From UHGV virus genome UHGV-1558314: a stretch of DNA of 64,000 bases. One strand, given 5' to 3'. This DNA is from a virus. The notes under the pieces are model-generated. The model was not told the DNA's origin. It made no database searches and was given only the letters and a program-made list of their open reading frames with translations. Of the stretch, positions 4,756 to 57,621 are shown in pieces; within the stretch, counting starts at the first letter, position 1; the number at the start of each line of letters is the position of its first letter. A program made the position numbers and the translations under genes.

Positions 4756-5207
4756 AGATTTGATTTGTATGTTTCACAACGTTTCCAATCTGTTGCAGCT
4801 TTAAGACCCTTCAAGTATTCTACATACATTGGATGTTCCCATGCAGGGTCATCAGTTACAGCAACATAACCTTTGCTGTGCTTATCTTTGTCAATAAGCA
4901 TCTCTGCATATTTTGGCGCAAGCAGTCGTTTGTTTGCAGCCCAAGCAAAATGACATTTGATAAAGTGTCGCGTAATTCTTGTGTATGCCGCTTTGACAGA
5001 CTTTAGCATATCAAGGTCTGCAATAACATCTGCCAAATTCTGTGGCGCTGCTGCAATGAAAACTGCTTCACAATCTTTGTGCTTTGCAGCAATTTGCTGC
5101 AGCAAATCTTCATGCGAATTAAGATGCAGAATTGTTGAACAGATGACTACAATGTCTGTTGCAGGTTCTATTCGCTTTGCTTGTTCTTTAAGAGATGGTT
5201 GTTCCAT
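4752..5207 (-). CDS. hypothetical protein
   Basis: ORF tightly packed with neighbours; no recognisable motif. Confidence 0.4.
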   Translation of the reverse strand: MEQPSLKEQAKRIEPATDIVVICSTILHLNSHEDLLQQIAAKHKDCEAVFIAAAPQNLADVIADLDMLKSVKAAYTRITRHFIKCHFAWAANKRLLAPKYAEMLIDKDKHSKGYVAVTDDPAWEHPMYVEYLKGLKAATDWKRCETYKSNL

Positions 5208-5213
5208 GTTGTG

Positions 5214-5483
5214 TCAGATTTTGATATGTCGTAGCAAAATTTTATGCAAATTCAACAATGATTGCGCTGCATATGCTGTATTTGGTTGAAGCTCTTTGCA
5301 GTTGTCGCATTTCAATGACTGCTCAGTTATTTGAGCATCTGTGTCAATGTTAATTGCAGTTTGGCAAACTACACATTGCCATTTAAGCGTATGTGTATGC
5401 AAGTTGTCTACGAACAATGTAGAGCCAAACTTATCTTGCCAGTCTTCTGCGCATTTTGGATGAAACATTGTCAATGAGCCCAA
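5214..5483 (-). CDS. hypothetical zinc-ribbon protein
   Basis: Cys pairs CxxC ... CxxC. Confidence 0.35.
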   Translation of the reverse strand: MGSLTMFHPKCAEDWQDKFGSTLFVDNLHTHTLKWQCVVCQTAINIDTDAQITEQSLKCDNCKELQPNTAYAAQSLLNLHKILLRHIKI

Positions 5484-10434: not shown

Positions 10435-11778
10435 TCAGAATTGAAACATGTTGTTGATAAACGTATCGCCAAACTGCGCATCTGCAGCTTTTGACGTTAT
10501 GTCATACGTTGCTGCATTGATGCCAAGCGCAGTTATTGTTGATTGCGCATCTACAAGTTCATACACTTTGCAGCTTGGCTTTGTAATGTCTGTAAATGAC
10601 ATTGTGTACATGAAGTTTTCAAAGATATGTCTTGGTACTTCACGTGCATTTAAGCATGCAAGCTGTCTATTTTCTGCAAATCGTGCTTTGAGCCATTCAA
10701 AGTCATCTGCAGGTACTGAGTCAACATTCATGAATGTCTTATATGCTGCAGTCAAAAACATTGTAATGACTTCGTCATCATACAAATCTTCACCAAGCAT
10801 ATATCGCATGCCAGGTTCCAACTGTTTTGCATTGTTAGTTTCAATGCCAAGAGACTTCAATGCATCGTAGATTTGGCCTACAGATAAATGCGACCAATTG
10901 TTGCCACGTTTCTTGAGCATGCCAAACAATTCTGGGATGTTGTCGCCAGCGTCGCCAAGTACAATCTTATAAAACAAGAAACTTGGTACATGCTCACGAA
11001 TCTCAGCGTCAACATACTCAAGCAGTGCTGCATATGGGTTGTCAAGTATACGAGTTTTGACTTGGGCGCCAGCAAAGCTGTCGAAGATACTGCTGCCAAC
11101 ATTCTGTGACTTTTCACCAGCAAGTTCTTTGATGTGTTCAAGCACAAACTTGTCGCCCATCAATACTCGAGACTTCTGCCAGCCATTTGCTTTGCAGCCA
11201 TTTTTGATGATTGCATATGCTGAACATGCGCCAGTATAAGTATCGACACAAACACATTGAGTCAAGTCTTTATCAGTGCCTTGATACAGCACATTGCGGC
11301 CTTTTGACGTTGCATATCTGCTAAGCATGAAGATGACATCATCAGCTTCTGCTTCAGAAAGCTTAATGTGACGAATGCCATGCGCTTCTTGCATCAACTT
11401 CAACCATTCAAAGTATACACCATAAACTTTGAGCCAGTTGATTGTCTGGTCATACGTTCGAGTGCCTTTGTAACCAGCATCTTCACCTTGTTCAAAGCCC
11501 TCTCTTGTCAAGTATTGATGCTTTGAGCGCCACAAATTCGACTTTTTGTCATCGACAGCAATGATGACATCATCAACGACATCTTCAAGTCTACGAAGCT
11601 CATTACAAAGGTCGAGTGTTAGCTTGGATATCAAAGACAGTCTTGATGCATTCTCATTCTTTTCAAATGACAAGTCTGTACCTGATTTTGCTAATACTGG
11701 CACTCTGCTCTTCAACCACCAGCTTCCATCAATTACGTAGATGAACTTGTGATTATGAGTATTGTCAAGCTTTGTCAT
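10435..11778 (-). CDS. 5'-3' exonuclease / flap endonuclease (RNase H-like)
   Basis: FIYVIDGSWWL near N-terminus and GDAGDNIPELFG (GDxxDNIPGV-type motif of the FEN / 5' nuclease family). Confidence 0.7.
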   Translation of the reverse strand: MTKLDNTHNHKFIYVIDGSWWLKSRVPVLAKSGTDLSFEKNENASRLSLISKLTLDLCNELRRLEDVVDDVIIAVDDKKSNLWRSKHQYLTREGFEQGEDAGYKGTRTYDQTINWLKVYGVYFEWLKLMQEAHGIRHIKLSEAEADDVIFMLSRYATSKGRNVLYQGTDKDLTQCVCVDTYTGACSAYAIIKNGCKANGWQKSRVLMGDKFVLEHIKELAGEKSQNVGSSIFDSFAGAQVKTRILDNPYAALLEYVDAEIREHVPSFLFYKIVLGDAGDNIPELFGMLKKRGNNWSHLSVGQIYDALKSLGIETNNAKQLEPGMRYMLGEDLYDDEVITMFLTAAYKTFMNVDSVPADDFEWLKARFAENRQLACLNAREVPRHIFENFMYTMSFTDITKPSCKVYELVDAQSTITALGINAATYDITSKAADAQFGDTFINNMFQF

Positions 11779-12027
11779 TGTCTGAATGCTTTTGCAATTA
11801 CTGATGTTGAGAGCATTGGCACACTACCATTTTTGAAGCGAGGCTTTTTGTTTGACAACGACCACTTTTGTTTATGCCACTTCGAGCAACTTGTGCCACG
11901 ATTTGTTACATCTGCGCCGGACCTTGAGCATTTGAGTCGAAAGTCTTGTGCAGATGTACCATGCTTCTTTATTGAATGCTGACAATTATAGCAGCATTTA
12001 TCGTGCGGTTCTACTGGATATCTCATG

Positions 12028-12495
12028 TCATTCAATGATAAGTGTATGACCGACTTCTTTCGCAAATGACACAATGCAACCAAACAATTGCGGGTCACAC
12101 CAAGGCTTGATGAACTGCTGCCACCAGTGAACATCAGATGATACCATCATTTCTTTGACAAGGTCTTCCTTTTCCCTGTCAAGATATGCAATGTCGCCCA
12201 ACGCAAACATTGACTTCAAGATGTTATCATCACTCATGTCAAACTTGCCAAGCCCTTGTTCGTCAACTTTTCGTGCAACCTTGATTGCATCAGGCAGCTT
12301 ACATGCACCATTTGCGCATAAACATGCTGCAAGAATTACAAATGCAGGCTTTTTGTCCTGTGCAAGTCTGTATGCCCAATTGCGTGTTGCAGGAAAGTTT
12401 GGTACCCTGATGTCTACACCTTGAGGCAGATTTGATTCTTTAACTGCTTTGAGCTTGGCATCACTGCCAACCATGCCCATCTTTATTTGTGTCAT
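12028..12495 (-). CDS. hypothetical protein
   Basis: ORF; no recognisable motif. Confidence 0.4.
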   Translation of the reverse strand: MTQIKMGMVGSDAKLKAVKESNLPQGVDIRVPNFPATRNWAYRLAQDKKPAFVILAACLCANGACKLPDAIKVARKVDEQGLGKFDMSDDNILKSMFALGDIAYLDREKEDLVKEMMVSSDVHWWQQFIKPWCDPQLFGCIVSFAKEVGHTLIIE

Positions 12496-26759: not shown

Positions 26760-26830
26760 GCAATACGACAGGACTCGAACCTGCGACCTCGGATTGGACG
26801 TCCGCGCTCTTACCGCTGAGCTACGTATTC
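26760..26830 (-). tRNA. tRNA-like, possibly Gly(TCC); non-canonical anticodon arm
   Basis: Canonical D-arm TAGCTCAGCGGTAAGAGC and T-arm GCAGG-TTCGAGT-CCTGT, but the anticodon stem pairs poorly (loop CGTCCAA) and there is a G-G at 1:72. May be a degenerate tRNA. Confidence 0.4.
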
Positions 26831-26920
26831 TTATCAATTGACTGCACTGCAATGCAATCAATCGCGCCAATGACACCTGACGCATAATTGCAGTTATGCG
26901 TAACAATTCAAATGTCATTG

Positions 26921-26993
26921 AGCCAACTGCAGGAATCGAACCTGTAACCTGCTGATTACAAATCAGCTGCTCTGCCAATTGAGCTAAGTTGGC
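26921..26993 (-). tRNA. tRNA-Thr (anticodon TGT)
   Basis: Folded by hand: acceptor GCCAACT/AGTTGGC, D-arm GCTC-AATTGGCA-GAGC, anticodon stem GCTGA/TCAGC with loop TTTGTAA, T-loop TTCGATT. Confidence 0.8.
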
Positions 26994-27075
26994 ATAAAGT
27001 CGTTGGGCCATTGCAACCCAAACCTATCATCTTTGCATAGCCAAAGATGCAAGCGCTCTCTTACACCACGACTTG

Positions 27076-27147
27076 TAGCCGAACTTGGAGTCGAACCAAG
27101 CTTTCGAGAATGAAAATCTCGCGTCCTAACCGATAGACGAAACGGCC
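27076..27147 (-). tRNA. tRNA-Glu (anticodon TTC)
   Basis: D-arm TTCGTCTATCGGTTAGGAC resembles bacterial tRNA-Glu; anticodon stem CGAGA/TCTCG with loop TTTTCAT; T-arm CTTGG-TTCGACT-CCAAG; two T-T mismatches at the base of the acceptor stem. Confidence 0.6.
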
Positions 27148-27330
27148 AAGAGCAGTTCAAGTCTGCAGCATTGAACTGCGGAAGCAATGCCTGTACGGGC
27201 AACCAATTGTGCAGATACAGCGACATTGCAAAATCACACCGAACCAAGTTTGTGGCTCTTCTGTCTCATAAAAACAGTAATCATTACACTTGGCACCAAT
27301 GATTCTGATGTAAAAATCGGTGTGTTATGC

Positions 27331-27413
27331 GGAAAGCGGAGGTGTCGATCCCCATACGCGAACGTACTCACGGTTTTCAAGACCGGATTTGCAGCCGTGC
27401 AAATTCACTTTCC
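27331..27413 (-). tRNA. tRNA-Ser-like (anticodon TGA), long variable arm, atypical D-arm and T-loop
   Basis: Acceptor GGAAAGT/GCTTTCC; anticodon arm CCGGTCTTGAAAACCG identical to E. coli tRNA-Ser(UGA); variable-arm hairpin GTACG-TTCG-CGTAT; T-loop ATCGACA. Confidence 0.45.
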
Positions 27414-27608
27414 ATAAAACATTGCATAAGCATTCTTATCTCTTGATGAGACCAAGTAGCTAATTTGGCAAGTTTGTTATATCTATCGTGACTGTTGCAG
27501 TTTATTTGTCACTCAATACACAAAATTTTCGAACATTCATTGACAGCACTGCAATATCGCTTTTTTAAGCTCAGCCATCAATGTATTTATGCAATGTATA
27601 ACAATTCG

Positions 27609-27690
27609 TAGCCAAACCGGGACTTGAACCCAGACTCCTAATGGAACAACATTTTGAGTGTTGCGTGTCTACCAATTCCACCATTTGGCC
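27609..27690 (-). tRNA. tRNA-Leu (anticodon CAA)
   Basis: Acceptor GGCCAAA/TTTGGCT, D-arm GTG-GAATTGGTAGA-CAC typical of tRNA-Leu, anticodon stem CAACA/TGTTG with loop CTCAAAA, long variable arm, T-loop TTCAAGT. Confidence 0.8.
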
Positions 27691-27794
27691 ATTTGCAAAT
27701 GCAAGCTGTTTCATAACTGTTTGCATTTGCTGTCGTAAATTTGTATTGTTTAGCCTCTAAAACATGATTCAACTAATCAAAAACCAGAGAATTG

Positions 27795-27867
27795 TCGAGA
27801 ATGTGCGATTTGAACGCCAATTATACGTCCCAAACGTATCGTGTTACCGGATTACACTACATTCTCG
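27795..27867 (-). tRNA. tRNA-Pro (anticodon TGG)
   Basis: Perfect anticodon stem ATACG/CGTAT with loop TTTGGGA; D-loop AATCCGGTAA; T-loop TTCAAAT; ends uncertain by 1 nt. Confidence 0.65.
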
Positions 27868-27874
27868 TTAATTG

Positions 27875-27946
27875 TTGAACCGTCTGGACTCGAACCAGAA
27901 ATGGCTGAACCAAAATCAGCTGTGTTACCGATTACACCACGATTCA
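27875..27946 (-). tRNA. tRNA-Gln (anticodon TTG)
   Basis: Acceptor TGAATCG/CGGTTCA (one G-T), D-arm GTGT-AATCGGTA-ACAC, anticodon stem GCTGA/TCAGC with loop TTTTGGT, T-arm TCTGG-TTCGAGT-CCAGA. Confidence 0.75.
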
Positions 27947-32830: not shown

Positions 32831-33757
32831 TTATCGCAATTGATTCTTTGCAATGAATGCATTGATGTGCTCTGGCTTGCATACAGCACGATAGTAGAGT
32901 TCAAATACTCGTTTAGCAGATGGCAATTTGCATGCAGTCAAATCTTTATCTTGCATTACAACACCAGTAATGTACTTAATGTCATGCAGCTCAATGTCTG
33001 AACAATGATGCTTTGCTGCAAACTCAAATGCTTGCTTAACAATTTTTGAGCATTCTGCTGTAGTACATTGCTGAAATGCTGCACAAAACTCTGCATAAGT
33101 GCTGCAGTCATTTTGCAGATGTAATGTAACAGATGATTTCAACATTGCTTCTGTTAAGTACTTTGGCAGCTTGCACAAAAATTTGACATATCTGCACTTG
33201 TCATCTGTCACATGCACATAGCCAGACACTGCAAGCATTCTAACATATCGAACAAGTTCTCTATGCTGTAGCACTGTGCGCAATATGACATTGTTTTGCA
33301 GCAAAATCTCATTGTCAACTGTGCAGTTAAGTGGCAATGTATTGTATGCTACTTTAAGATATGATAGCTTCGTTAATTGTTGTAAGCCATCATAGCCAAC
33401 AAAATCTGCTGGCACAATCAGTGGCAGACTGGCAACAACTTGTCGATTATTTCTGTCAACAATTGTGATTGCTGGGTTTTGCAAGTCAAGCACAGATTTT
33501 GAGCAAAACACTTGCATTGTGTCTTGAACTATGACAAATCCGAAGTTCTTGCACAATTGCATATTGCATGTACGAGCTTCTGCTGCGCTAATTGTTGCAA
33601 TGGGCAATCGTTTGTCGCTACACACATGCATTGGAGTTGGCCATATTGGGTCTGCTCTCAATACAAACACGTGTTTATTGCGGTCATATATTGCAGCAAA
33701 ATCTGCAAGATTGCTGATGTATCTTAAAGTAGTGTTACAAATCCCATTCATATGCAT
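32831..33757 (-). CDS. hypothetical protein
   Basis: ORF track gives 32831..33973 but that overlaps the upstream gene by about 240 nt; internal start more likely. Confidence 0.4.
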   Translation of the reverse strand: MHMNGICNTTLRYISNLADFAAIYDRNKHVFVLRADPIWPTPMHVCSDKRLPIATISAAEARTCNMQLCKNFGFVIVQDTMQVFCSKSVLDLQNPAITIVDRNNRQVVASLPLIVPADFVGYDGLQQLTKLSYLKVAYNTLPLNCTVDNEILLQNNVILRTVLQHRELVRYVRMLAVSGYVHVTDDKCRYVKFLCKLPKYLTEAMLKSSVTLHLQNDCSTYAEFCAAFQQCTTAECSKIVKQAFEFAAKHHCSDIELHDIKYITGVVMQDKDLTACKLPSAKRVFELYYRAVCKPEHINAFIAKNQLR

Positions 33758-34568
33758 TGTCTTGTACAGGTCCGCTAATTTGAACATCGAGGCCAAAGCG
33801 CTCAAGATAGCCATCGCAGAAATCAAGCCCATATTTGTTGCACTGTCTGAATGCATACTGGAACTTATCCAAGATTGCCCATAGATAAGGCTTTGAGCCT
33901 TCTGTGGGATATCCACCCTTTCTGTAATGCCACCAGCGCATGATATCATGAAACTCCCAATCTTCTGCTTCACATTCTACTGTAAAGCAGTCATGATATT
34001 TTGCCATCTGAGGCCAGAGTTCAGTATTGATGCGTTGACGAGTTGCTGCGCAGTCATCAAGCAACTCAAGAAACTCTTCAGGCGCATCAATCATGGGCAG
34101 ATTTGCTTCATTGACATCGATTTCTGCATCATTCGACAGCAGCTTTGTGATACGACCATTGTGCTCCGCGATGTCCTCGTAGACTTTTTTGCGTGTTGCA
34201 TCCATAGTCGCAGTCCACTTCGTGCCCTCTTCAATTTTCGGAAGTTGCTTGTCTTTGTTTTCGTTCCATTCAGGTGACTGGTCGAATATCGCCTTGCGAC
34301 GAATGTCTACAAGCTCCAAAAAGAAGGGCTTCGTCAACATAACAGCGTCACCCAGAATTTCTTTTGCTTGTTCAAAGCCCTCAATTTTGATTGAGTCTGC
34401 TGCAGCACAAATCTGCTCCTGAATTTTGTCTGCAGCTTCAAGAATGATGCGAGCTTTTGTTTTGATGTCATAAGATGCAGAATGTAAGCCAAGCTGCTCT
34501 GCGATTTCTACGGAATTTTGAAGACGAGCCTGCATGGCTTCTTCATTGTTCTTCTTTCCTCGTGCCAT
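33735..34568 (-). CDS. hypothetical protein
   Basis: 277-aa ORF. Confidence 0.5.
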   Translation of the reverse strand: MARGKKNNEEAMQARLQNSVEIAEQLGLHSASYDIKTKARIILEAADKIQEQICAAADSIKIEGFEQAKEILGDAVMLTKPFFLELVDIRRKAIFDQSPEWNENKDKQLPKIEEGTKWTATMDATRKKVYEDIAEHNGRITKLLSNDAEIDVNEANLPMIDAPEEFLELLDDCAATRQRINTELWPQMAKYHDCFTVECEAEDWEFHDIMRWWHYRKGGYPTEGSKPYLWAILDKFQYAFRQCNKYGLDFCDGYLERFGLDVQISGPVQDNAYEWDL

Positions 34569-45334: not shown

Positions 45335-45943
45335 TTAGCCTGCAAACTCATTGATTTTTAGGTCATTTGTCGTAACTGCAAAGCAATCAATGTGCAGCCA
45401 TGTGACGTCTTTTTCTATACGACAACGATGCGGCAATTCATCTGCATGTTCTTTAATGAGCTTTCGCATTTCTGCAGCAGTCATATCTGCAGACTGACAA
45501 TCAATTGCTGCACCATTACAATGTGCACTCAAATAAAGCTTGTTTGCAAGTGTCTTGTCTTTTGGGATTTGACAGATATTGCATCGTAAGCCACGTTGAC
45601 TCATTGTGCCGCCTTTAGCCCAATTATTGACACATAACGGCACTTTCAGCACAAATTTGCGTAATGCAAGCAGCAAGTCAAGCAGTTCTCTGTCAAGAAA
45701 CTGCCAAGAATTATCGCCAAACTTGTCATAGCAATGTTTGCATACAAGTTCTTTTATGCTGAAATATTGCTTAAGCTCTGCAATGACAGAGTCTCTTGAA
45801 GCACTTGCAATATCTGCAATGTTAGCTATGCTGTTGTTGCTGTTGTTCATGTTGTCTATCAAGTTCTTTGCATTTGCACTCATTTCGTTCACCCATGACT
45901 TTTGTAATGCCCGCAGTTGCAAACATGCCTGCGACTGCGCCAA
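45335..45943 (-). CDS. endolysin, peptidase M15 family (L-alanyl-D-glutamate peptidase-like)
   Basis: Zn-binding signature SAHCNGAAID (S-x-H-x-x-G-x-A-x-D) and downstream WLHID; start uncertain, probably an internal Met. Confidence 0.65.
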   Translation of the reverse strand: MAQSQACLQLRALQKSWVNEMSANAKNLIDNMNNSNNSIANIADIASASRDSVIAELKQYFSIKELVCKHCYDKFGDNSWQFLDRELLDLLLALRKFVLKVPLCVNNWAKGGTMSQRGLRCNICQIPKDKTLANKLYLSAHCNGAAIDCQSADMTAAEMRKLIKEHADELPHRCRIEKDVTWLHIDCFAVTTNDLKINEFAG

Positions 45944-46133
45944 TTATGCCTGCAACTGCGCCAAGTTGCTCAGTTGTTTTGCCAGTTGCTACGACTTCCC
46001 ATATGATAGCAAAACAAACAACGAGCAATATAAAGATGCCTATAAAAGTCACAGCTACAACAAAAAATGATTTGACTGACACACCAGTGTCATTCGTCAC
46101 TAAGTTGCGCATTGTAAATTTGTTGTTATTCAT
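45822..46133 (-). CDS. holin-like small membrane protein
   Basis: Two hydrophobic helices (FFVVAVTFIGIFILLVVCFAII; LGAVAGIIGAVAGMFATAGI), charged Q-rich C-terminus, immediately upstream of and overlapping the endolysin. Confidence 0.45.
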   Translation of the reverse strand: MNNNKFTMRNLVTNDTGVSVKSFFVVAVTFIGIFILLVVCFAIIWEVVATGKTTEQLGAVAGIIGAVAGMFATAGITKVMGERNECKCKELDRQHEQQQQQHS

Positions 46134-46293: not shown

Positions 46294-47949
46294 TTATGCA
46301 AGCAATGTTTGCAGCATGTAGCAGCCTTTTGCATATGCGACAATTGCTTTTGCAGGATTGTTCTTGATGTATGCAGGCAACTTGAGCCAAATCAGTGCTA
46401 CAAGAACTTTCTGTCGCAGCGTTAAATCAAGTTCATCAATGTTGTAGCCAATGACTTTTGCTCTGACATCGCCATCAACATAATCGAATTGCTGATATGC
46501 TGACTGATTGAATGCATCATAGCCAGACAAGCCATATGCAAACTTTGCAATGTCATAATCGATGTCACCAGTCATCTTGACGTCACCAAAGTAGCCTCTT
46601 GGGTCAATGAACATGCATTTTGATGAATCTGCACTGAACATTGTATTTGACGTATTCGGGTCACCATGAATGAATGACCAATTTTCGCATGCATAGTCAA
46701 TTGAATCTTCTTGTGACAAGAAGAATCTTAACTTGCTCATCAGTTCATCGAATGGCATCAATGCAATACCATTGAATGATTTGATGCCTGCTACAAGTGA
46801 CTTGACTTCAGCATATCTTGCAATAGTAGTCTCAATGTACTCTTTGCGCATTGCGTCAATCATTTGCTGTCTGCTAACTGGCCAAATCTCGTCATTGTCA
46901 AGATTACTTGCATGCAATTCATTGATTGACTGTTTGAATGTTGTCATGCAGCCACGAGCAATTGCAGCATATCTACGCTCAATATCAACTTTGTTGAGGA
47001 ACTGATGTACAGTCACTCCGTTAATTTTCGACATTTTGATGAAGTCTTCACCAGTTTCAAATATCGATGGAATGACTGTCGATTCTGCATTCATAGCATG
47101 ACGATACCATTCTTGTTCTTTCTGAATGAGTGCCAAACCACGAGCATTTGTAGCAGATTTCGTAACAATATCGCCATCAATGCTAATGCTATTGAAATAC
47201 CGCACTTCATTATCACGTGCAGCCTTGACTGCTTCACTGACAAATGCTCCGCGTTCGCCATATGAATGACAGCCAGCAATTTCATATCTGTCTACAAATG
47301 TAACGTTGGTCATTAAATCAGCAAAATCAGCATTGTTATCATTATGCTGCATATCAATGACATTGTTATGAAACGCTGCAGGTACATAATATGCGCCAAC
47401 AATGCCACTATGATATGTAGACTCATACAAATGGTCGAGCACATATGCTTCTGCATCTGCATAAGACCCTACTTTGTAGAATGCATCAGTAGGAATGAGA
47501 TGCAGTCTGCAATCAATGTCATTTGACGTGCAACAAGTTATGCAGCCATTTTTGAATTCTGCAAACGGCAATTCAATATCGCCAAGCCACACATCAGACC
47601 AATGATAGAATACATTGCAATCACCAATGTTGTTAGCAACAAACATTGCTACATCTGCGCATGCTTTTGCTGAGCCATCAGCTTTGTCATGCACAATAGT
47701 TGATAACTTGATATCTGGTGCAAATGCTGCAGCATGTTCATGAATCATTGCTACATGAGTGTCATTTGCACATGCAACAATGACTTCATCAAACTGTCGA
47801 GCATAGGATGTCAAAATCTTTGCAAGCACTGTTTGTTTGCCTGCATTTACAAGAGTTTTAGGGATGTAATTGTTGCCGGTCATTGTTGACATGCGAGTGC
47901 CCAACCCACATGCAATGATTGCTAACACATTTGGATATTGATGAGACAT
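46294..47949 (-). CDS. bifunctional sugar-phosphate nucleotidyltransferase / APH-choline-kinase-fold kinase
   Basis: N-terminal AIIACGLGTRM...IPKTL (G-x-G-T-R nucleotidyltransferase signature); C-terminal FIHGDPNTSN and FIDPRGY (kinase H-x-D...N and D-x-x-G-type motifs). Confidence 0.6.
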   Translation of the reverse strand: MSHQYPNVLAIIACGLGTRMSTMTGNNYIPKTLVNAGKQTVLAKILTSYARQFDEVIVACANDTHVAMIHEHAAAFAPDIKLSTIVHDKADGSAKACADVAMFVANNIGDCNVFYHWSDVWLGDIELPFAEFKNGCITCCTSNDIDCRLHLIPTDAFYKVGSYADAEAYVLDHLYESTYHSGIVGAYYVPAAFHNNVIDMQHNDNNADFADLMTNVTFVDRYEIAGCHSYGERGAFVSEAVKAARDNEVRYFNSISIDGDIVTKSATNARGLALIQKEQEWYRHAMNAESTVIPSIFETGEDFIKMSKINGVTVHQFLNKVDIERRYAAIARGCMTTFKQSINELHASNLDNDEIWPVSRQQMIDAMRKEYIETTIARYAEVKSLVAGIKSFNGIALMPFDELMSKLRFFLSQEDSIDYACENWSFIHGDPNTSNTMFSADSSKCMFIDPRGYFGDVKMTGDIDYDIAKFAYGLSGYDAFNQSAYQQFDYVDGDVRAKVIGYNIDELDLTLRQKVLVALIWLKLPAYIKNNPAKAIVAYAKGCYMLQTLLA

Positions 47950-47990
47950 TGTGTAGTATTGTTTATATGAATATTGTACAATATGCATTG

Positions 47991-48248
47991 CTATTTTGCA
48001 AGATGACAATGCTTACGCCATACTGCAATTTCAACATCTGTAGCAAAATCAAAGTGCAAGCCATGCAATTGTTTCATGTCATATTGACGTCTTGCAATAT
48101 ACTTATTGCCAACTCGCTCAACAACAGAACCAATTTCTACTACATTTTTAGAATGTCGTGGCTCATGTAATGGCACTCTGAATATGTATCTGCCATCTAA
48201 TGTTGACATTATGTCACCATTGTCAATTATGCCTGTTTGCCTGCTCAT
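47991..48248 (-). CDS. hypothetical protein
   Basis: 85-aa ORF. Confidence 0.3.
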   Translation of the reverse strand: MSRQTGIIDNGDIMSTLDGRYIFRVPLHEPRHSKNVVEIGSVVERVGNKYIARRQYDMKQLHGLHFDFATDVEIAVWRKHCHLAK

Positions 48249-48263
48249 TGTTAAAGCATCAAG

Positions 48264-48938
48264 TTATTTTTGAATGTCTACAAGTTCTGCTGCAATTCTA
48301 TCATATGCTAGCATGTGCTTAATTGCGTCATCAAGCAGCTTGTTAAATTCAAGATACTGCTGCAGCACTTTGTCATTCTGCAATGACTGCTCAAGCGCAG
48401 CATAATCACCTGCAAACGGGCGATTCATTGACAGGCCAAAGTTCTTCGCACATTTAGCATAAAATGCATTGTACTCTGCAGCATCAATTGGTGTCGCGTC
48501 ATGAGCTTTAAGCGCACTTTCACTGAGCAACGGGATGGTTTGCTTTCTGCAACGAGTAAACTCGTCTTTGTCAACATACAACACAGAACAACGAACGACA
48601 TTGTCTTCTGCATTCATACCACCTGTCAACAAATCCATTTCCCAATCGAAGCAAATGTTGTAGATGTACAGCATCACAGTTCGATGCTTGTTATCAACAA
48701 ACTTCCAATATCGAGACTTTTTGCAGATAGCTTTGATATGCTGCAAGTCATGCATAAACTTATCATGCGATATCGCATCAAAGCGAGGCAATGATTTGTT
48801 GTCAATGAATGTGTTTGCTGCATCTGCACAACGTTTGAATTCTGCTTGATGCATATTCAGCTCTTCTATGCGCTTTGCTACAAGCGCTTCATATTCTGCT
48901 TTTGCAAGAGCAAGTCTTGCTTCATACAAACTTTGCAT
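48264..48938 (-). CDS. hypothetical protein
   Basis: 224-aa ORF. Confidence 0.45.
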   Translation of the reverse strand: MQSLYEARLALAKAEYEALVAKRIEELNMHQAEFKRCADAANTFIDNKSLPRFDAISHDKFMHDLQHIKAICKKSRYWKFVDNKHRTVMLYIYNICFDWEMDLLTGGMNAEDNVVRCSVLYVDKDEFTRCRKQTIPLLSESALKAHDATPIDAAEYNAFYAKCAKNFGLSMNRPFAGDYAALEQSLQNDKVLQQYLEFNKLLDDAIKHMLAYDRIAAELVDIQK

Positions 48939-48963
48939 ATTTGTGTATGTTTATGAGTTTCTG

Positions 48964-49420
48964 TTAAAATTTGCCATCTGCTACTTGAAAACATTGATAG
49001 CCAAGCTCTCGCCATTTAGCGACCATGGAATCGCGGTCTTCAAGCACAAATGCAATTTGTTGCAGTTCGTCTTCAGACAATGTTTCTACAAGCAATTCAG
49101 GTTTGACAAGCGTATCATGACGTTTATCACCATCTTTTCGCATAAGAATTTGCGGATTGACGATTCTGCCATCTGTATGCTGTGCAAGCCAAACTTCTGT
49201 CATCTGTCTGCAGCTTTCACGACGACCTGTGCAGAATATGATTCTGTAGCCAACTTGCTGCAAATCGCAAAGCAAGTCAAGCACAGTCATAATAGGCTTG
49301 TCTTCATAACAGTGTGCATAAAATGCATCCCCAATCTTTGTTTGATTGTTGAAGATATTTTAGACGGTCGCCAACTTTTGAAATTGTTCCGTCAATGTCG
49401 CATATGATGATATTTGCCAT
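48964..49420 (-). pseudogene. HAD-superfamily phosphatase interrupted by a +1 frameshift
   Basis: ATG at 49420 opens MANIIICDIDGTISKVGDRLKYLQQSNKDW (HAD motif I) and stops after 38 codons; the rest (DAFYAHCYEDKPI...IIFCTGRRE...) continues in the +1 frame; removing one base from the cccc run at 49329..49332 fuses both parts. Confidence 0.5.
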
Positions 49421-49444
49421 GATATGTATGCTTATGAAAGGAAG

Positions 49445-49470
49445 AGCTCAATTGAGCTCTTCCTGATAGT
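49445..49470 (-). terminator. perfect palindromic hairpin
   Basis: aggaagagctcaa / ttgagctcttcct downstream of the 49495..50367 gene. Confidence 0.5.
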
Positions 49471-49494
49471 CAACTTGATAAACCTCTACGAAAA

Positions 49495-50367
49495 TCAAGC
49501 CTGACTACTTTTGTTGATTACGAGATACTTGTATCGTTCTTTGATTGTGATGTTCTTTGATTTTGCTGCCTCGAGTTCTTTACGTTCCTTGGAGGAATAG
49601 TTGAACTTGATGTAGTCGGAGAACAATTCGGGCTTATCTGCTACTTCATTGTTCTTGACTTCTTTTACAAGAGTTTGCTGAAACTCATTGATTGTAGTGA
49701 AACCAAGGAATGACTGGAACTTGTTAAGCGGAAACAACTTATCTGTGTTGTCCTCGAATGTCGGGAATTCGTCGGAATACGTAATTTCGATTTGGTCTAC
49801 GAAATATCTAAGTTTTTCCCAAGGTTCCTTGCCAATGAGGAGAATGTTCTGATGGTCAAGTTTTTCCTCGAACATTTCCAGGAGGCATTCGTATGATTTT
49901 ACGAGACGAACTCCAGGATATGTAATTGATGCAATTGAACGAGGTTTGTGAGTTGTCTTGACTTCTTTATTGTACGTTTCCTCATCAATGCAATAGATGT
50001 ATCGCTTGACCTTGTCGTATTCTTTCGGAAGATAGTTGTTGTCAAGGAATTGCTTGTCAACTACAATGAAACTGAAAGGATAGAGTTCATTGAATCGTTG
50101 ACGAAGCTGTTCTGTTGCAAGGAAGAAATGCGAGCCATCTTTTGCTGCAAATTCCATATTTGAATTGCATCCTGCATATGCAATGTATCTGTTTCGCTTC
50201 CATTTAAGGAATCGACTTACCAGATTCTTTTCGAAGATATCCTTGTATTTGAAGTTAGTGTCCCAGTACTCCTTAACAATTCCATCTTGCATTTTTCTTG
50301 ACAATTTTGAATTGTCTACCGGCCTATCAGTAAAAACTGAAGGTTTGTTTGCATTGTATAATCCCAT
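49495..50367 (-). CDS. hypothetical protein with atypical nucleotide composition
   Basis: Start taken at MGLYNANK (ATG at 50367) just downstream of a promoter-like motif; sequence visibly richer in gg/tcgg/ggaa than neighbouring genes. Confidence 0.5.
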   Translation of the reverse strand: MGLYNANKPSVFTDRPVDNSKLSRKMQDGIVKEYWDTNFKYKDIFEKNLVSRFLKWKRNRYIAYAGCNSNMEFAAKDGSHFFLATEQLRQRFNELYPFSFIVVDKQFLDNNYLPKEYDKVKRYIYCIDEETYNKEVKTTHKPRSIASITYPGVRLVKSYECLLEMFEEKLDHQNILLIGKEPWEKLRYFVDQIEITYSDEFPTFEDNTDKLFPLNKFQSFLGFTTINEFQQTLVKEVKNNEVADKPELFSDYIKFNYSSKERKELEAAKSKNITIKERYKYLVINKSSQA

Positions 50368-50407
50368 TGTAGTAGAGGTTTTTGTTAAATTTATTATATA
50401 TGTATAT

Positions 50408-50434
50408 ATTACAACGACAGTGCAAAATTTGCAC
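50408..50434 (-). promoter_or_regulatory. recurrent bipartite promoter-like motif
   Basis: attacaacgacagtgcaaaatttgcac (contains the palindrome cagtgcaaaatttgcactg). Confidence 0.5.
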
Positions 50435-50461
50435 TGTCGTAGCATAAAAGTTTACACATTT

Positions 50462-50812
50462 TTACAAATATGAGTACAGTTTGTTCATAACTCGTTCAAT
50501 TGCAAATTCAACACCATATTGCAACAACTGTTCAGTGCTAAATGTCTTTGCTGCATGTGCATGCGCAACAATATGCTTTGTCTGTGCATATAATATCCAA
50601 GTATCAGTTGGCCTGTCATAAGTTACTGTCAGTCTACATGTTTGCAACACAAACTCTTGACTAAAGTATTCTCTTCGCCAAAACTCTGGTTCTGCAATAT
50701 GCAAATCAAGCCAAGCAAACTCAAACAGAATTTGTTTAAGTTGACGTTGATGCTTACGTTCAGCACGATATGAGTTGCTGAATAGCCATTTAATGATGTT
50801 CATCATTTGCAA
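50462..50812 (-). CDS. hypothetical protein
   Basis: 116-aa ORF. Confidence 0.4.
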   Translation of the reverse strand: MQMMNIIKWLFSNSYRAERKHQRQLKQILFEFAWLDLHIAEPEFWRREYFSQEFVLQTCRLTVTYDRPTDTWILYAQTKHIVAHAHAAKTFSTEQLLQYGVEFAIERVMNKLYSYL

Positions 50813-51519
50813 TCATTATGCTGAGTATGAATTGCGTTGCCCTGTGAATCCAAGCGAATCGCAGTTTGCATTGCGACTTCAGATTGTGTTTGTTCTGCTT
50901 GACGAGCTCTTTGAAGTCCACCTCCAGGGTGACATGTGTAAAATCTATCAAAGTCAGTGCCAAGCTGTTCAGCAACAGACAACATGATGTTATCACCAAT
51001 GAGCTGAGATGCTAGCAGAGAATTCGTCGGAATTCGTGGATTGCGTGAGTCCTCGTCAATTGCTGGCAATGATACAAGCAAGTCTGCCCAAGCATTCATA
51101 TCAGTGACCTTGCCACCAGCAAAGTTAATGCCGATGATTTGGCAATTCGGTGCAAGCAATTCACGATGTTCACGAAGATATGTCATTGCAGTTGCAAGTT
51201 CAGATGTGTTGCCTGTTTTGCTGAATGCTACAATAACATCATTGTTTCGAATCATACCAAAGTCACCATGCATTGCATGTACTGCATCAAAGAACGCAGC
51301 ATCAAGTGAAATTGAATAGCATGTTGCAGCAAGTTTTTCACAGCAATGCACATTTTTGCCAATGCCAGTGAACAATACTTTGCCATCAGACTTCAATGCA
51401 TTTGCAATAATGTCTGCTGCAATGCCAAGAACATCATATTGCGCATCTGAAATGTTGTTGTGCCATGCTACAAGCGACTCGACTGATGCAGCAATGCCTT
51501 TGTGTACAAGTGTTTTCAT
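50803..51519 (-). CDS. SIS-domain sugar-phosphate isomerase (arabinose-5-phosphate isomerase-like)
   Basis: DGKVLFTGIGKNVHCCEKLAAT and VIVAFSKTGNTSEL match the KdsD/KpsF-type SIS signature; no CBS domains. Confidence 0.7.
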   Translation of the reverse strand: MKTLVHKGIAASVESLVAWHNNISDAQYDVLGIAADIIANALKSDGKVLFTGIGKNVHCCEKLAATCYSISLDAAFFDAVHAMHGDFGMIRNNDVIVAFSKTGNTSELATAMTYLREHRELLAPNCQIIGINFAGGKVTDMNAWADLLVSLPAIDEDSRNPRIPTNSLLASQLIGDNIMLSVAEQLGTDFDRFYTCHPGGGLQRARQAEQTQSEVAMQTAIRLDSQGNAIHTQHNDCK

Positions 51520-51537
51520 TTTGTGATGTTTGAAGGT

Positions 51538-52221
51538 TCAAAGAAACTTGAGTTTTGACAGCATTTCAGTGTCTTGTTCTGTGTTGATGCCAAGCTCTTG
51601 CATGACATCAAGCAACGCAGACCATAATTGCTCATATGATTGCCCACCCCCATTCATGACAACTGCATCAACGAACAACTCGTCGATGTGCTGCTCACTT
51701 GAATGATTGATGTTTTGCATGACATCATCATTAACAATCTTTATGAGTTTGAAGCCTCTTGAGCGCAATGCGGTCGCTTCATTTGGATATCGACAGTCAC
51801 CAACACAAATGAGAGCTTCATTATGACAGTTGTCAAGTCGATACAACAAACTATTGACAAAGAAGTCTTCACCATACAGTTTCTTGAGCACATCTGAAAC
51901 ATCAAGATGCACATTGCGAATCGATGAACCTGCAAACTCTACAAAGTGTTTTTGTTTGAATGCATTGTTATGCAAGTCTTGCAAATTGTAGCCCAGTGTA
52001 CTTGCAATAAATGCTTTCAGTGGCTTTGCAAAGCACTCATATGCAAGATTGCAGCCACATGACCAGTATGGATTTGCTTCAATTTGCTGCAAAGTTGATG
52101 TGTAAATGCTATCAATTACAGTGAACTTGCATTTAGTCATGACTCGAATCATCGCCCAAGCCAAATCTTTGCCTACGCCTGCATGACCAACAAGCGCAAT
52201 TTTTGTTATGTCATCATTCAT
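51538..52221 (-). CDS. deoxynucleoside monophosphate kinase (T4 gene 1-like)
   Basis: P-loop ALVGHAGVGKD (G-x-x-G-K-D variant typical of phage dNMP kinases). Confidence 0.55.
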   Translation of the reverse strand: MNDDITKIALVGHAGVGKDLAWAMIRVMTKCKFTVIDSIYTSTLQQIEANPYWSCGCNLAYECFAKPLKAFIASTLGYNLQDLHNNAFKQKHFVEFAGSSIRNVHLDVSDVLKKLYGEDFFVNSLLYRLDNCHNEALICVGDCRYPNEATALRSRGFKLIKIVNDDVMQNINHSSEQHIDELFVDAVVMNGGGQSYEQLWSALLDVMQELGINTEQDTEMLSKLKFL

Positions 52222-53269: not shown

Positions 53270-55222
53270 CTACTCTGCTTTTGTTGCTTGCATCAGTTCA
53301 GCAAAGCTTACAGTGTAAGCATCTTCACCAACAGTCACATATGCTGCATCAACATTGGAGTCATTGCCTGTGTATGTAACCAAGGTGCCTGCAGGAATTT
53401 CTACACCGTCAATTGTTCGCATCGAATTGACAAGCTTATATGTCTTGTTGTCTTCGAAGTTCTCATTGACATATGCGGCAGCAATCATTGTTGAACGCTT
53501 ACGAGATGCAGACTCATTGACAAAGCTTGCGCCAACAAGTTCTGACAGCTTCTTCTTTGTTGCTGCAGAACACTTGTCATATGCAATGTCAATTGCAAGG
53601 TCTACATCGCCAAGTTCCTTTGCAATGAGTTCATCAATCTGAGACAGCTTCTTGTCATCTTTGACAGCGACAAAATTCATTGCAAACTTGCGAGCGTTGT
53701 CTGACAATGATTCATCAATGTTCCACTGTTTCATCAATGTCTGCTTCAGTACCTTGTCAAGTTCCGACCAGTCCTTATCTGCAAGAGTAGTTGCATCAAA
53801 GTCTTCATTGCTGAACTGCTTCAGCACTTTGACTTTGTCATCATGTGACAATGCTGACCACTTGTTTGCAGCGTCTTCAGCAGATTCAAGCAGAGGCTTG
53901 ATTGCATCTTTGAGTTCTTGCGGCCAAGTTTCAGGCGCTTTGAGCAGCATCTCAGATGAGTTGTACTTAAGCATGTCGGTCATGATTGCAAGCTTAACAT
54001 TGTTAGCTTTCTCCTCAGGTGACAGAGCTTTGAACTTTTCAGCCCAGTCTTCAGATTCAGTCACGATTGATACTGGCTTTGCAAAACCAGCGACAAAGAC
54101 AAGCTTATACATGATGTTCGTCATGAATGAACAAACTGCATCAATATCAGACTGAGTTGCTGCAGATTGAGCATCACGAATGTTAAGCAATGCTTGACGA
54201 AGAGACATAATGCCTACAACAGGGTCAGACCATGTCAATACAACTGAACTATCGATTGTGATGCCCTTGTCAAATCGCATATTTTCTGCAATGCGGTCAG
54301 CAAGTTCAGGCAGTTCAGTGTAGTACTGCTCAAGTGCTGCATGTGTAGCAGGAATAGAAACTTTTGCAGCATCAAATGGGTTATTGATGTGCATAACATG
54401 TGCAGTTTGAATTGACTGCATCAGCATCGACACTACTGCAGATTCTATTGCAACATCATCTGCAGCAGCTTCATCAAGATTTGCAATTTTTAGCAATGCC
54501 TTTTTGTCTGCATCTGACAATCGCAGCCAAATGTATTCCCATTGACTGTTTGCATCATAGCCACGGTCAGTAGCAAACTTGGTGAGTTCTGCAGATTTCT
54601 TTGCTGCGTCATCGTCATCAAGCCAATCCAAGAATGCTTTCAGTTTGTCGTCAAATGCTTCATTGACAAATGACGCCATCGCATTTTGCAACAAATATTG
54701 ATGGTCTCGTACTGGTGACTCAACAATTTCAAAGCCTTCAAGAGACTTTGGCGAGTCAGTTGCTGAACCAGCTTCAAGACACTTCTTTGATGCATTGTCA
54801 ATGACAAACCACATCTTTTGTGCTTTGAGTGCAATGTAAGTCTTGTCTTTTGATTGCTGAACAGTCATGTTGTCAAGAGCCAATGCACTGATTGGCAAAT
54901 TCTTGACTGCTGACTTGTCAAGTGCTTCATTGACTGCTACATTGTCATCACTCATTAACTGAGTATTTGCAGCAAATGTTGCAGAATCAATGCTAAGCTC
55001 TTTGCCATCGGGCATAGCGAACTTAACTGCATCTGCAACATCAAGCACTTGCACCATGGTGCCTGCTTCGACTTTGTCGTCACCAACAGCGAACTCAGTT
55101 ACAACCTGATATGCTTTGTTAGCTTCAACAGTCTCAACAGACTCCATAATGAACTTTGCTGTGCTGCAAGAGATTTTGTGCTTTTTCATGTTCATGTATG
55201 AATTTGAGTGTTTGTTGTTCAT
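53270..55222 (-). CDS. hypothetical acidic protein (possible prohead scaffold or other virion protein)
   Basis: 650-aa D/E/K/A-rich ORF located in the capsid gene neighbourhood. Confidence 0.45.
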   Translation of the reverse strand: MNNKHSNSYMNMKKHKISCSTAKFIMESVETVEANKAYQVVTEFAVGDDKVEAGTMVQVLDVADAVKFAMPDGKELSIDSATFAANTQLMSDDNVAVNEALDKSAVKNLPISALALDNMTVQQSKDKTYIALKAQKMWFVIDNASKKCLEAGSATDSPKSLEGFEIVESPVRDHQYLLQNAMASFVNEAFDDKLKAFLDWLDDDDAAKKSAELTKFATDRGYDANSQWEYIWLRLSDADKKALLKIANLDEAAADDVAIESAVVSMLMQSIQTAHVMHINNPFDAAKVSIPATHAALEQYYTELPELADRIAENMRFDKGITIDSSVVLTWSDPVVGIMSLRQALLNIRDAQSAATQSDIDAVCSFMTNIMYKLVFVAGFAKPVSIVTESEDWAEKFKALSPEEKANNVKLAIMTDMLKYNSSEMLLKAPETWPQELKDAIKPLLESAEDAANKWSALSHDDKVKVLKQFSNEDFDATTLADKDWSELDKVLKQTLMKQWNIDESLSDNARKFAMNFVAVKDDKKLSQIDELIAKELGDVDLAIDIAYDKCSAATKKKLSELVGASFVNESASRKRSTMIAAAYVNENFEDNKTYKLVNSMRTIDGVEIPAGTLVTYTGNDSNVDAAYVTVGEDAYTVSFAELMQATKAE

Positions 55223-55474: not shown

Positions 55475-56494
55475 CTATTGCTTATGCCAGCCATATGATG
55501 CCTGACCAGCATCATACACTTCTACAAAACCATGGTCGTACATAAAATCTTCATTACGAGTGCCCTTGCCCCCATTAGTACCAAGAATACGGTCTGCACC
55601 ATGCATAAGCAGCATATTATTTGTGATATGTTGCTTTGTCAGCATATTGAACCAATGTTTGCTATATGACAAGCCAAGACCATCAAAGCCCAGCTTTGTG
55701 TACACGCCACCATCAAACTTGCTCAAATCACAATACGACAACACAGATTCAGGGTCATATGTCTTGATAAAGTGCTTGAATATGCGTTCGGCGCCACCTA
55801 CGACTTTTGTTGCTGCACAAAGACGCAGTAGTTCATACTGATATCGCTTATTGTATCGTGGACGACCAAATGTCATAAGCTGATGTATGACATAGCCGCC
55901 AAGCAATTCAAGTGGATGGCCTTCAATCAACGCAAGATTGATAAAATTGCCTGAGCACTTGCCTTGCAAATGATGTTCAATCAAAAATTGATTTGCAGTA
56001 TACTTGTCAATTTCAACAACTTTAAGCTTGCGAGCATATACAATCTTTGATTTGTCTACGATTTGATGCTTGATGTGATTGATAACTTTCTTGGCGTCAT
56101 CCCAATCCCACACATGAATGCAATGAAAGCCTGCAGCTTTTGCAATGTCTGTTTTCTTTGCATGAATATCACAAGGCAAATGCGAATCTTTTGCAGCATG
56201 CATAAATAGATGCTCAAATGAATGCGTGCTATTATGTGAAAATGTGGGATTGATGTTGATGACGATGTTGTCATGTCTAAAATCGAAGACTTCATCACCA
56301 ATAACAAAGTTGCGCTCAAAATCTATACCGACATGTTTGAGTAATACTTGATGCCACACATCTTTATAGGCTGATTCAAGATTGCTTAGCTCATCACAGT
56401 TTGCAATATTTTTGTAACGTTGAATAGCAGCATCAAAGTCAAGATTGACTTCAGCGTAGTCTGCATTTTTATCGTAGTGAAATTTTGAGCTCAT
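55475..56494 (-). CDS. paralog family member C (conserved domain without the repeat array, extra inserted region)
   Basis: NINPTFSHNST, CIHVWDWDD, FVEVYDAGQ; FLIEHHLQG region between them; start taken at MSSKFHYD (ATG at 56494). Confidence 0.55.
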   Translation of the reverse strand: MSSKFHYDKNADYAEVNLDFDAAIQRYKNIANCDELSNLESAYKDVWHQVLLKHVGIDFERNFVIGDEVFDFRHDNIVININPTFSHNSTHSFEHLFMHAAKDSHLPCDIHAKKTDIAKAAGFHCIHVWDWDDAKKVINHIKHQIVDKSKIVYARKLKVVEIDKYTANQFLIEHHLQGKCSGNFINLALIEGHPLELLGGYVIHQLMTFGRPRYNKRYQYELLRLCAATKVVGGAERIFKHFIKTYDPESVLSYCDLSKFDGGVYTKLGFDGLGLSYSKHWFNMLTKQHITNNMLLMHGADRILGTNGGKGTRNEDFMYDHGFVEVYDAGQASYGWHKQ

Positions 56495-56598
56495 GTGTAT
56501 AATTTGTATGAGATTATTGTACAACATGCAAATGCATGTTGCATTTGATGCAAAGTACTGCGTACACAACATAAAGTACAAGTTTGCTTTTGACAGAC

Positions 56599-57621
56599 TT
56601 ACTTTGTATTGCTACGCGTCATTGTTAAATGACCGCAATCATACACATCAACTTCTGTTTTGCCAAGCATGCATGTATGACAATTTATTTTGAAATCTAC
56701 TGCAGTGTAGTCAGGATAGTTTAGCGGAGATTCTTTTGACAAATCAATTTCAATTGTGTCAGTAGTTTTAAGTTGTTCAGTGCCTGCAATGATATCTGCA
56801 ATGAGATTGATAACATCTTCTTGTGAATCCCAGTCAAACACAGTTATGCAACGATAGCCTGCATCAAGCGCAAGTTTTGTTTTGTTGTAATGGTATTGCG
56901 CATCAAGTGGCTCATTTTTGTCAGACAATTTTGTTGCATATCGAAACCCAAGCGTGCTGTTATGCGATACGGTAGGATTGATTTCTACAAGCAATTTATG
57001 TGTGCCATCAATATCATATGACAAATCATATGAATAACGTTGAATTCTAACTGCGTCAAGCTGCATGTCAATGTGTAAATGACGCAATATTATTGCATGC
57101 CAATGCTTGTTGATGCCCGATATTATATTTGCAGCTTCCATGCATTTTGGATGCATTACAAAATACGGCACGCCAAAGCGTTCTTGTATTGTTTTGTATG
57201 CTTTTGCATTAGAATCTTTACCATAAATGCTGCCATAACGCTTAAGCTTTGTAGCAATCAACTTGTCTATGTCACCCATAGCATTGCCAAAGCGCTCAAT
57301 CTTATGCTGTTTAATGGCATCTTTGTCGCCAAACATATGACCATATCGAGACATCTTTGTTGCTTTGACTGCATTGATGTTGCAACCTGCACCATATCGA
57401 GCATGCATAGTTTGCATGCGTTTAGCAATGTGCTCTTGTGATTGCTTAATTTGTTCGGTGCCAAATTTGCGCAAATTATTGATACGCTTAGTAACATCTT
57501 GTTTAATGACTGAATGCGTGGTTGTTCGCTTGCCAAGTCTTACACATTCTGTAGTTTTGAGCAATGTATCTCGTTCAAACTCAATTTGTGCAATTCGTGC
57601 AACAATTTCTTTAGATGTCAT
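56599..57621 (-). CDS. paralog family member D
   Basis: Repeats KxxRYG...GD plus LLVEINPTVSHNST, CITVFDWD, VDVYDCGH; start taken at MTSKEIVARI (ATG at 57621). Confidence 0.6.
   Translation of the reverse strand: MTSKEIVARIAQIEFERDTLLKTTECVRLGKRTTTHSVIKQDVTKRINNLRKFGTEQIKQSQEHIAKRMQTMHARYGAGCNINAVKATKMSRYGHMFGDKDAIKQHKIERFGNAMGDIDKLIATKLKRYGSIYGKDSNAKAYKTIQERFGVPYFVMHPKCMEAANIISGINKHWHAIILRHLHIDMQLDAVRIQRYSYDLSYDIDGTHKLLVEINPTVSHNSTLGFRYATKLSDKNEPLDAQYHYNKTKLALDAGYRCITVFDWDSQEDVINLIADIIAGTEQLKTTDTIEIDLSKESPLNYPDYTAVDFKINCHTCMLGKTEVDVYDCGHLTMTRSNTK

Follow-up and report, generated by a model that had tools for sequence, protein, structure and literature searches.

A PNKP-type HAD phosphatase gene of a T4-like gut phage split by a one-base frameshift, probably a recent loss-of-function allele

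1. Introduction

The C-terminal domain of T4 Pnkp (PseT), the Pnkp1 protein of Capnocytophaga gingivalis and the Pfam family PF25109 (HAD_PNKP) represent the same phosphatase domain family as the protein considered here, which is encoded in a 64,000-nt stretch of viral DNA (UHGV-1558314), hereafter the window. The window is part of the genome of a T4-like tailed phage (~175 kb) from gut metagenomes, and it encodes a T4-type terminase, clamp loader, topoisomerase II, NAD-dependent ligase, tail sheath and head protein. Unlike T4 Pnkp and Pnkp1, the window protein is a stand-alone phosphatase of 151 aa without a P-loop kinase, and its gene is interrupted by a +1 frameshift.

A HAD-like phosphatase also takes part in a described pathway of phage DNA modification. 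An isomerase, the bifunctional AfhE and the HAD phosphatase AfhF (RB69 gp51) make UDP-arabinose for DNA containing arabinosylated 5-hydroxycytosine (PMC13326640). AfhF, known as gp51 in RB69 and gp81 in DLP3, converts arabinofuranose-1,5-bisphosphate to Araf-1-P (PMC13326640). Like AfhF, the window HAD gene is clustered with an isomerase-like gene, an AfhE-like nucleotidyltransferase/kinase gene and a dNMP kinase gene; unlike AfhF, its product has no detectable sequence similarity to RB69 gp51. The RB69 literature offers a further parallel, in that the splits of ORF052c/053c and ORF046c/047c were attributed to sequencing errors (PMC13326640). Like those splits, the window locus shows one gene as two adjacent ORFs in different frames, with the break at a short mononucleotide run. 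Unlike them, the window's call recurs in an independent sample and strain.

2. Layout of the Split Gene

The minus strand of the window is the coding strand of the HAD gene, which is laid out as follows.

48964..49420, minus strand: the whole disrupted gene, encoding a stand-alone PNKP-type HAD phosphatase of 151 aa once repaired
49304..49420, minus strand: N-terminal fragment ORF, 38 codons plus TGA, with motif I (D8-I-D10-G-T12)
49329..49332, minus strand: G4 run on the coding strand (CCCC on the plus strand), located by alignments and a regex survey of run lengths
48964..49290, minus strand: C-terminal fragment ORF, 108 aa, from internal Met44, with motifs II–IV and without the Asp nucleophile

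The ATG at 49420 starts a 38-codon ORF that reads MANIIICDIDGTISKVGDRLKYLQQSNKDW, then GCILCTLL, and ends at the TGA at 49304–49306. The first-pass annotation of this DNA had described 30 codons from this ATG followed by a stop. The HAD motif and the break are as it described them, but the ORF runs to 38 codons, of which residues 1–30 are native and residues 31–38 (GCILCTLL) are out of frame. Its placing of the remainder of the protein in the ORF 48964..49290 agrees with the translation of the minus strand: this ORF lies in the +1 frame, and its 108-aa product reads MTVLDLL...ADGKF. Likewise, the removal of one base from the CCCC at 49329..49332, which the annotation had said would give a continuous 151-aa phosphatase, does yield an unbroken product of that length reading ...KDWDAFYAHCYEDKPIMTV... 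in the repaired translation. A fused peptide across the frame junction would read ...NKDWDAFYAHCYEDK.... The insertion shifts the frame within the W30-D31 codons, right on the invariant W30-D31-x-F33-Y34 motif, and 13 nt separate the TGA of the first ORF from the ATG of the second.

For annotation, 48964..49420 should be entered as one disrupted gene and not as two small ORFs. Three contigs already have the 108-aa product entered as a called gene, and the called ORF has its own HAD_PNKP match; in the public protein collections, this product should be regarded as a fragment. An alternative genetic code was considered and rejected, as several stops of different kinds lie in the downstream 0 frame and the homologous frame is the +1 frame.

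3. Family, Catalytic Residues and Fold

The repaired 151-aa protein matches HAD_PNKP with an E-value of 9e-31 and a score of 107.3 bits (cut-off 27.6), over profile positions 2–143 of 143, and it also matches PHROG families annotated as polynucleotide kinase. Among 5.8 billion proteins searched, 711 were homologues. Those listed are single proteins of ~145–163 aa, except for the 108-aa fragment (P0005) and one protein of 213 aa. The closest are 91–94% identical over the full length, and full-length identity to uninterrupted 151-aa proteins of related contigs is 91–95%. Because the HAD_PNKP match is full-length and the identity to uninterrupted 151-aa proteins is so high, the split is not a chance juxtaposition of two ORFs. 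The first-pass annotation had suggested looking for homologues that are naturally two separate genes; single ORFs of 145–155 aa were found throughout, which leaves the split-gene reading standing. The proposal of two natural genes was rejected, since every homologue is a single ORF.

Among solved structures, the sequence matches are to Pnkp1 (4xrp, E 7e-15) and T4 Pnkp (E 1.7e-8). These matches identify a PNKP-type phosphatase domain without a kinase domain. A P-loop 5′-kinase domain is absent, and the protein and its close homologues (145–155 aa) consist of the phosphatase domain only. The fold is that of a PNKP phosphatase; a structure model was made for an intact relative with 94% identity to the window protein.

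The HAD catalytic motifs, namely motif I (DxDGT), motif II (T/S), motif III (K/R) and motif IV (an acidic pair), are all present in the repaired protein. An alignment of 40 sequences has D8, D10, G11, T12, W30, D31, F33, Y34, D40, T64, K106, E127 and D128 as invariant residues, of which D8, D10, G11, T12, T64, K106, E127 and D128 align to the motifs of T4 Pnkp and Pnkp1. The 108-aa fragment carries C63-T64-G65-R66, K106 and E127-D128-R129-D130. In the window copy, these motifs do not lie in one chain of an uninterrupted frame, the break falling after codon 30. The nucleophile motif and motifs II–IV are on separate fragments, and neither fragment has the full catalytic set. Further, the frameshift falls between W30 and D31, and residues D31, F33, Y34 and D40 are encoded by neither fragment.

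By sequence, the gene belongs to the HAD_PNKP family, and the window has it as a disrupted allele. The family assignment predicts that the intact enzyme would be a 3′-phosphatase for nucleic-acid ends or nucleotides.

4. Length of the G Run in Relatives

DNA of relatives was reached via protein look-ups, via neighbouring genes (85-aa protein, P0136) and via pattern scans. The G3 context, GATTGGGATGC, is present in L001, L003, L004, L005/L007/L030, L011/L016, L013, L014/L015, L025–L028 and L037. The G4 context, GATTGGGGATGC, was found, among the loci examined, only in the window, L008–L010/L012 and L002. Since the close relatives have GGG and a single ORF of 145–155 aa, the window carries a G3-to-G4 insertion. 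The comparison thus supports the earlier view that a 1-nt change in a homopolymer of 4 nt breaks a single HAD phosphatase gene, the close intact relatives having GGG where the window has GGGG. An additional 14 protein variants of the same 90% clusters (P0122–P0135) are in frame, reading KDWDAF or KDLDAF in one ORF, and one of these, P0135, was found on 56 contigs.

The loci with the G4 context are of two kinds. L008/L010 (ENA ERZ27260853, assembled with MEGAHIT, 175,395 bp) and L009/L012 (from ERR1136818, a Logan assembly) show 100% identity to the window across 4.3 kb. They are of the same strain as the window and may stem from the same sample, although different assemblers produced them. L002 (run ERR13912692) is 94.5% identical to the window over 6.4 kb, has a different SNP background and also has GGGG; within the HAD gene, dS between L002 and the window is 0.16. 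Within the gene, the haplotype nearest to the window is L003, which is G3, and L002 has several SNPs in common with L013, also G3. Private SNPs of L002 lie 39 nt upstream and 17 nt downstream of the run (alignment columns 71 and 130), so that any recombination tract would be shorter than ~60 nt. The pattern of G3 and G4 over the haplotypes therefore calls for at least two indel events at the run, whichever state is ancestral.

As to the reach of the survey, a megablast search of the 3-kb region against GenBank phages gave no match, from which we conclude that no cultured close relative exists. A scan of JGI metagenomes with a 35-nt N-terminal pattern gave nothing. A second JGI metagenome scan gave one relevant contig, L037 (G3), together with chance matches, and a scan of GTDB genomes gave chance matches only. 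Unusual proteins form clusters of their own, so the sampling is partly biased to odd alleles: in the sample drawn via the 85-aa neighbour, two of the four haplotypes are lesioned, and in the protein clusters, most HAD variants are intact.

5. Nature of the Lesion

We propose that the window carries a real and recent loss-of-function allele of a phage accessory gene, a reading to which we assign a probability of about 0.7. The ancestral gene would have encoded a 151-aa stand-alone PNKP-type HAD phosphatase, in which the G3 run inside codons W30-D31 would have grown to G4 by a slipped-strand insertion. Translation from the ATG at 49420 would then exit the native frame after residue 30 and end at the TGA at 49304–49306, giving a 38-aa product that would retain motif I alone; the 108-aa ORF would supply motifs II–IV and no nucleophile. 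Since D31, F33, Y34 and D40 are on neither piece, no active enzyme would be expected. We infer that the G4 is in the DNA itself, not just in the assembly, and that the G4 allele is non-functional. The HAD gene would then be dispensable to one clade of large gut phages, or at least often lost there.

The age of the lesion is indicated by substitution patterns. The HAD gene has a dN/dS of ~0.15 (pairwise NG86) whether the copies are lesioned or intact, a value that falls among those of the neighbouring genes (0.03–0.25), and the window allele has no private amino-acid change. Together, these two observations mean that purifying selection acted until very recently, and that the lesion is therefore either young or an artefact. 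An ancient pseudogene is rejected on the same two grounds. The lesion is probably recent, an ordinary allele and not a recoding device. The biological weight of such an allele is minor. The accessory phosphatase gene is of a known type, and the change is an ordinary 1-nt insertion in a homopolymer.

The lack of decay after the frameshift is equally how a sequencing or assembly artefact would look, in which case the true genome would have GGG and an intact gene, with no private substitutions and no rise in dN/dS, as expected of a functional gene. Moreover, the 100%-identical contigs L008 and L009 may come from one sequencing run, and assemblies of one run are non-independent evidence for a loss of function. 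There is also the precedent of a similar gene cluster, that of RB69, where the splits of ORFs 52/53 and 46/47 were blamed on sequencing errors (PMC13326640). Even so, we consider an artefact unlikely. The GGGG was obtained with two different assemblers, and it is present in a separate run from a ~5% diverged strain; its presence in other assemblies and in that strain's run argues against a random base-calling error. Within the 8 kb around it, no second gene is broken. Runs of 4 nt are not known to be error-prone on short-read platforms. Of the three options that the first-pass annotation had left side by side, the inactivating mutation is the best supported, as the same GGGG recurs in other assemblies and in the ~5% diverged sample. 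The cost of a loss of function on two haplotypes is that the insertion must either have recurred at a short G3, which is no classic hotspot, or have travelled on an undetected recombination tract. That same indel, on two haplotypes whose nearest relatives are G3 and with at least two events at the site, would also suit recoding or switching, by +1 ribosomal frameshifting, transcriptional slippage or reversible phase variation of the G run. Two more homopolymer indels in L003 (A4 to A5 and T4 to T3) within the same 40 nt point in this direction, as does an RNA fold round the site that is mildly better than shuffles (z −2.3). We nevertheless regard recoding or switching as very unlikely. The frameshift lacks conservation, since by far most relatives are in frame, and restoring that frame takes a +1 or −2 shift (within 49304..49362), not −1. 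None of the known +1 shifty codons occurs in GAU-UGG-GGA-UGC, and on GGG the re-pairing of tRNA-Trp would be poor. Nor is GGA a hungry codon, since the phage encodes a tRNA-Gly(UCC) that reads it. Re-pairing in the +1 frame is not possible at the 0-frame stop, whose context is UUA-UGA-A, and the window has six ordinary tRNAs and no quadruplet-decoding one. The tracts known from transcriptional slippage and phase variation are much longer than G4, with a homopolymer threshold of ~7 nt or more. The slippery-site expression switch suggested at first finds no support: the site is not conserved, it has no +1 shifty motif, the G4 is too short and GGA is served by tRNA-Gly(UCC).

Only 13 nt separate the stop from the internal ATG, a short gap that leaves room for re-initiation, and the 108-aa ORF was called as a gene with a HAD_PNKP match. 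A functional split enzyme could then be envisaged, in which termination and re-initiation would yield both the 38-aa and the 108-aa product and these would assemble non-covalently. We hold this to be highly improbable, as D31, F33, Y34 and D40, together with helix 30–35 of the model, are on neither piece, and no naturally split homologue was found.

A suppressor or quadruplet tRNA was also considered as a candidate, and none was found in the 64-kb window. A promoter and terminator scan and the RNA fold gave nothing decisive.

6. Gene Neighbourhood

The HAD gene lies between an isomerase-like/dNMP kinase side and an AfhE-like side, all on the same strand, as follows.

46294..48009, minus strand: AfhE-like nucleotidyltransferase/kinase (Pfam NTP_transferase; phrog_4098, 3e-76)
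50803..51519, minus strand: SIS-domain protein, arabinose-5-phosphate-isomerase-like (Pfam SIS, 2e-8; phrog_5670, 2e-28; tblastn to RB69 ORF055c, 1.6e-16)
51538..52221, minus strand: dNMP kinase (phrog_139, 4e-25; weak match to Pfam DNMK)

The annotation of phrog_5670 is arabinose 5-phosphate isomerase. The AfhE-like protein (551–571 aa) combines an N-terminal nucleotidyltransferase domain with a C-terminal region that can be aligned to the kinase portion of RB69 ORF052c. Over its full length it is homologous to RB69 ORF053c/052c and to the counterparts in JS98, Thanatos-2, PTm5 and MA9V-2; RB69 and these four phages are among the 372 phage records matched by tblastn. The cluster 46294–52221 on the minus strand resembles the UDP-arabinose/cytosine-arabinosylation module of RB69, DLP3 and HY126. 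By Pfam and tblastn, neither a ThyA-like synthase of 5-hydroxycytosine or hydroxymethylcytosine nor an RB69-type arabinosyltransferase was detected in the 64-kb window of the ~175-kb genome, and no recognisable glycosyltransferase was found in the window. The neighbouring genes g290 and g224 have no assignable family.

At the sequence level, membership of the HAD protein in the AfhF family was rejected: BLASTP against RB69 gp51 gave no alignment at E-values up to 100, and tblastn of RB69 gp51 against the window gave nothing. The gene directly downstream of the AfhE-like gene encodes a gp51-type HAD-like phosphatase in RB69 (L020) and JS98 (L032), an annotated histidine phosphatase in PTm5 (L031) and a hypothetical protein in Thanatos-2 (L033), with a ThyA-like gene within one or two genes further on in JS98, PTm5 and Thanatos-2. 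This arrangement suggests that the phosphatase step is filled by unrelated enzymes in different phages, that is, by non-orthologous replacement.

Does the window HAD protein fill such a step? Its ~60%-identical homologues lie in unrelated early-gene contexts, without isomerase or AfhE-like genes. MA9V-2 has homologues of the isomerase, AfhE and g290, but no such HAD gene nearby. Linkage of HAD_PNKP to the isomerase/AfhE module was looked for outside the clade and not found. We give about even odds to the intact HAD protein being an end-healing or nucleotide 3′-phosphatase, and about one chance in three to its being the phosphatase step of a UDP-arabinose-like DNA-modification module. Its neighbourhood is what suggests the latter, in which the protein may carry out a sugar-bisphosphate phosphatase step. 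The context itself is the more useful by-product of the analysis: a gut T4-like phage with homologues of the coliphage cytosine-arabinosylation isomerase and of AfhE, and with a different kind of phosphatase. If the module is active, natural G3 and G4 strains would provide isogenic-like material on the need for the phosphatase step.

Directly upstream of the HAD gene is g290 (49495–50367, 290 aa), which is extremely conserved in the clade, with a dN/dS of 0.03. A g290 homologue, MA9V2_230 (L021 2567–3307; tblastn 2e-22), adjoins the isomerase and AfhE-like genes of Chryseobacterium phage MA9V-2. One source labels g290 as TruA; it matches no Pfam or PHROG family, and the 290-aa form has no entry in the protein records. 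The g290 protein is a candidate for an additional component of this module.

At 49440–49463, in the gap that separates the HAD start codon from the upstream gene, lies a perfect 24-nt palindrome, GGAAGAGCTCAATTGAGCTCTTCC, with TTTC after it. The window and four relatives, the five sequences of one alignment, all have it in identical form. The palindrome looks like the terminator of the upstream gene, in which case the HAD gene would need read-through or a promoter of its own.

7. Other Lesions of the HAD Gene

Relatives carry other changes in the HAD gene. L014 (1829–2236) and L015 (916–1323), whose two source runs have neighbouring accession numbers, share a nonsense change from TGG to TGA, W136*. 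In L004 (ENA scaffold COST17-2), the HAD gene (5001–5438) has an 18-nt in-frame deletion between GCTTGT direct repeats. In L003 (1224–1280), compensating A4-to-A5 and T4-to-T3 indels within 40 nt scramble 11 residues, including W30 and D31. Six neighbours, namely the dNMP kinase, g116, g290, g224, g85 and AfhE-like genes, have no disruptive change at any of the loci examined. The sole other lesion is a 34-nt deletion in L004 (~2917), which takes the start codon of the isomerase-like gene. Both L004 deletions fall within the same putative pathway.

It is tempting to ask whether repeated, independent HAD knock-outs are selected as on/off variants of DNA glycosylation, with the HAD protein as a non-orthologous AfhF equivalent in the UDP-arabinose-type module of a T4-like gut Bacteroidota phage. 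The knock-outs counted here are the +G on two haplotypes, the nonsense codon, the 18-nt deletion with the 34-nt deletion, and the double indel of L003. We consider such selection quite doubtful; if it does occur, HAD on/off variants could, for example, evade restriction systems aimed at modified DNA. Of the points raised here, further work might be worthwhile only on the putative sugar-nucleotide module and on the repeated lesions.

8. Other Observations in the Window

Six tRNA genes are present at 26760–27946 on the minus strand: Gly-TCC, Thr-TGT, Glu-TTC, Leu-CAA, Pro-TGG and Gln-TTG. In three places, at 32831–34568, 11775–12495 and 45335–46133, two ORFs on the minus strand lie in different frames and overlap by 107–239 nt; these could be further frameshifts or generous choices of start codon. 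The overlap at 45335–46133 is kept in relatives. One of the six overlapping ORFs, the 202-aa ORF at 45335–45943, has a PHROG match, to endolysin phrog_894; the remaining five have none.

The alignment of the window to the IMG/VR relative L030 breaks at 54474–54657 and at 55475–57590. One break adjoins a 368-aa protein with matches to homing/HNH endonuclease PHROGs, and the second lies just downstream of that protein, which suggests mobile-element-associated variability at these sites.
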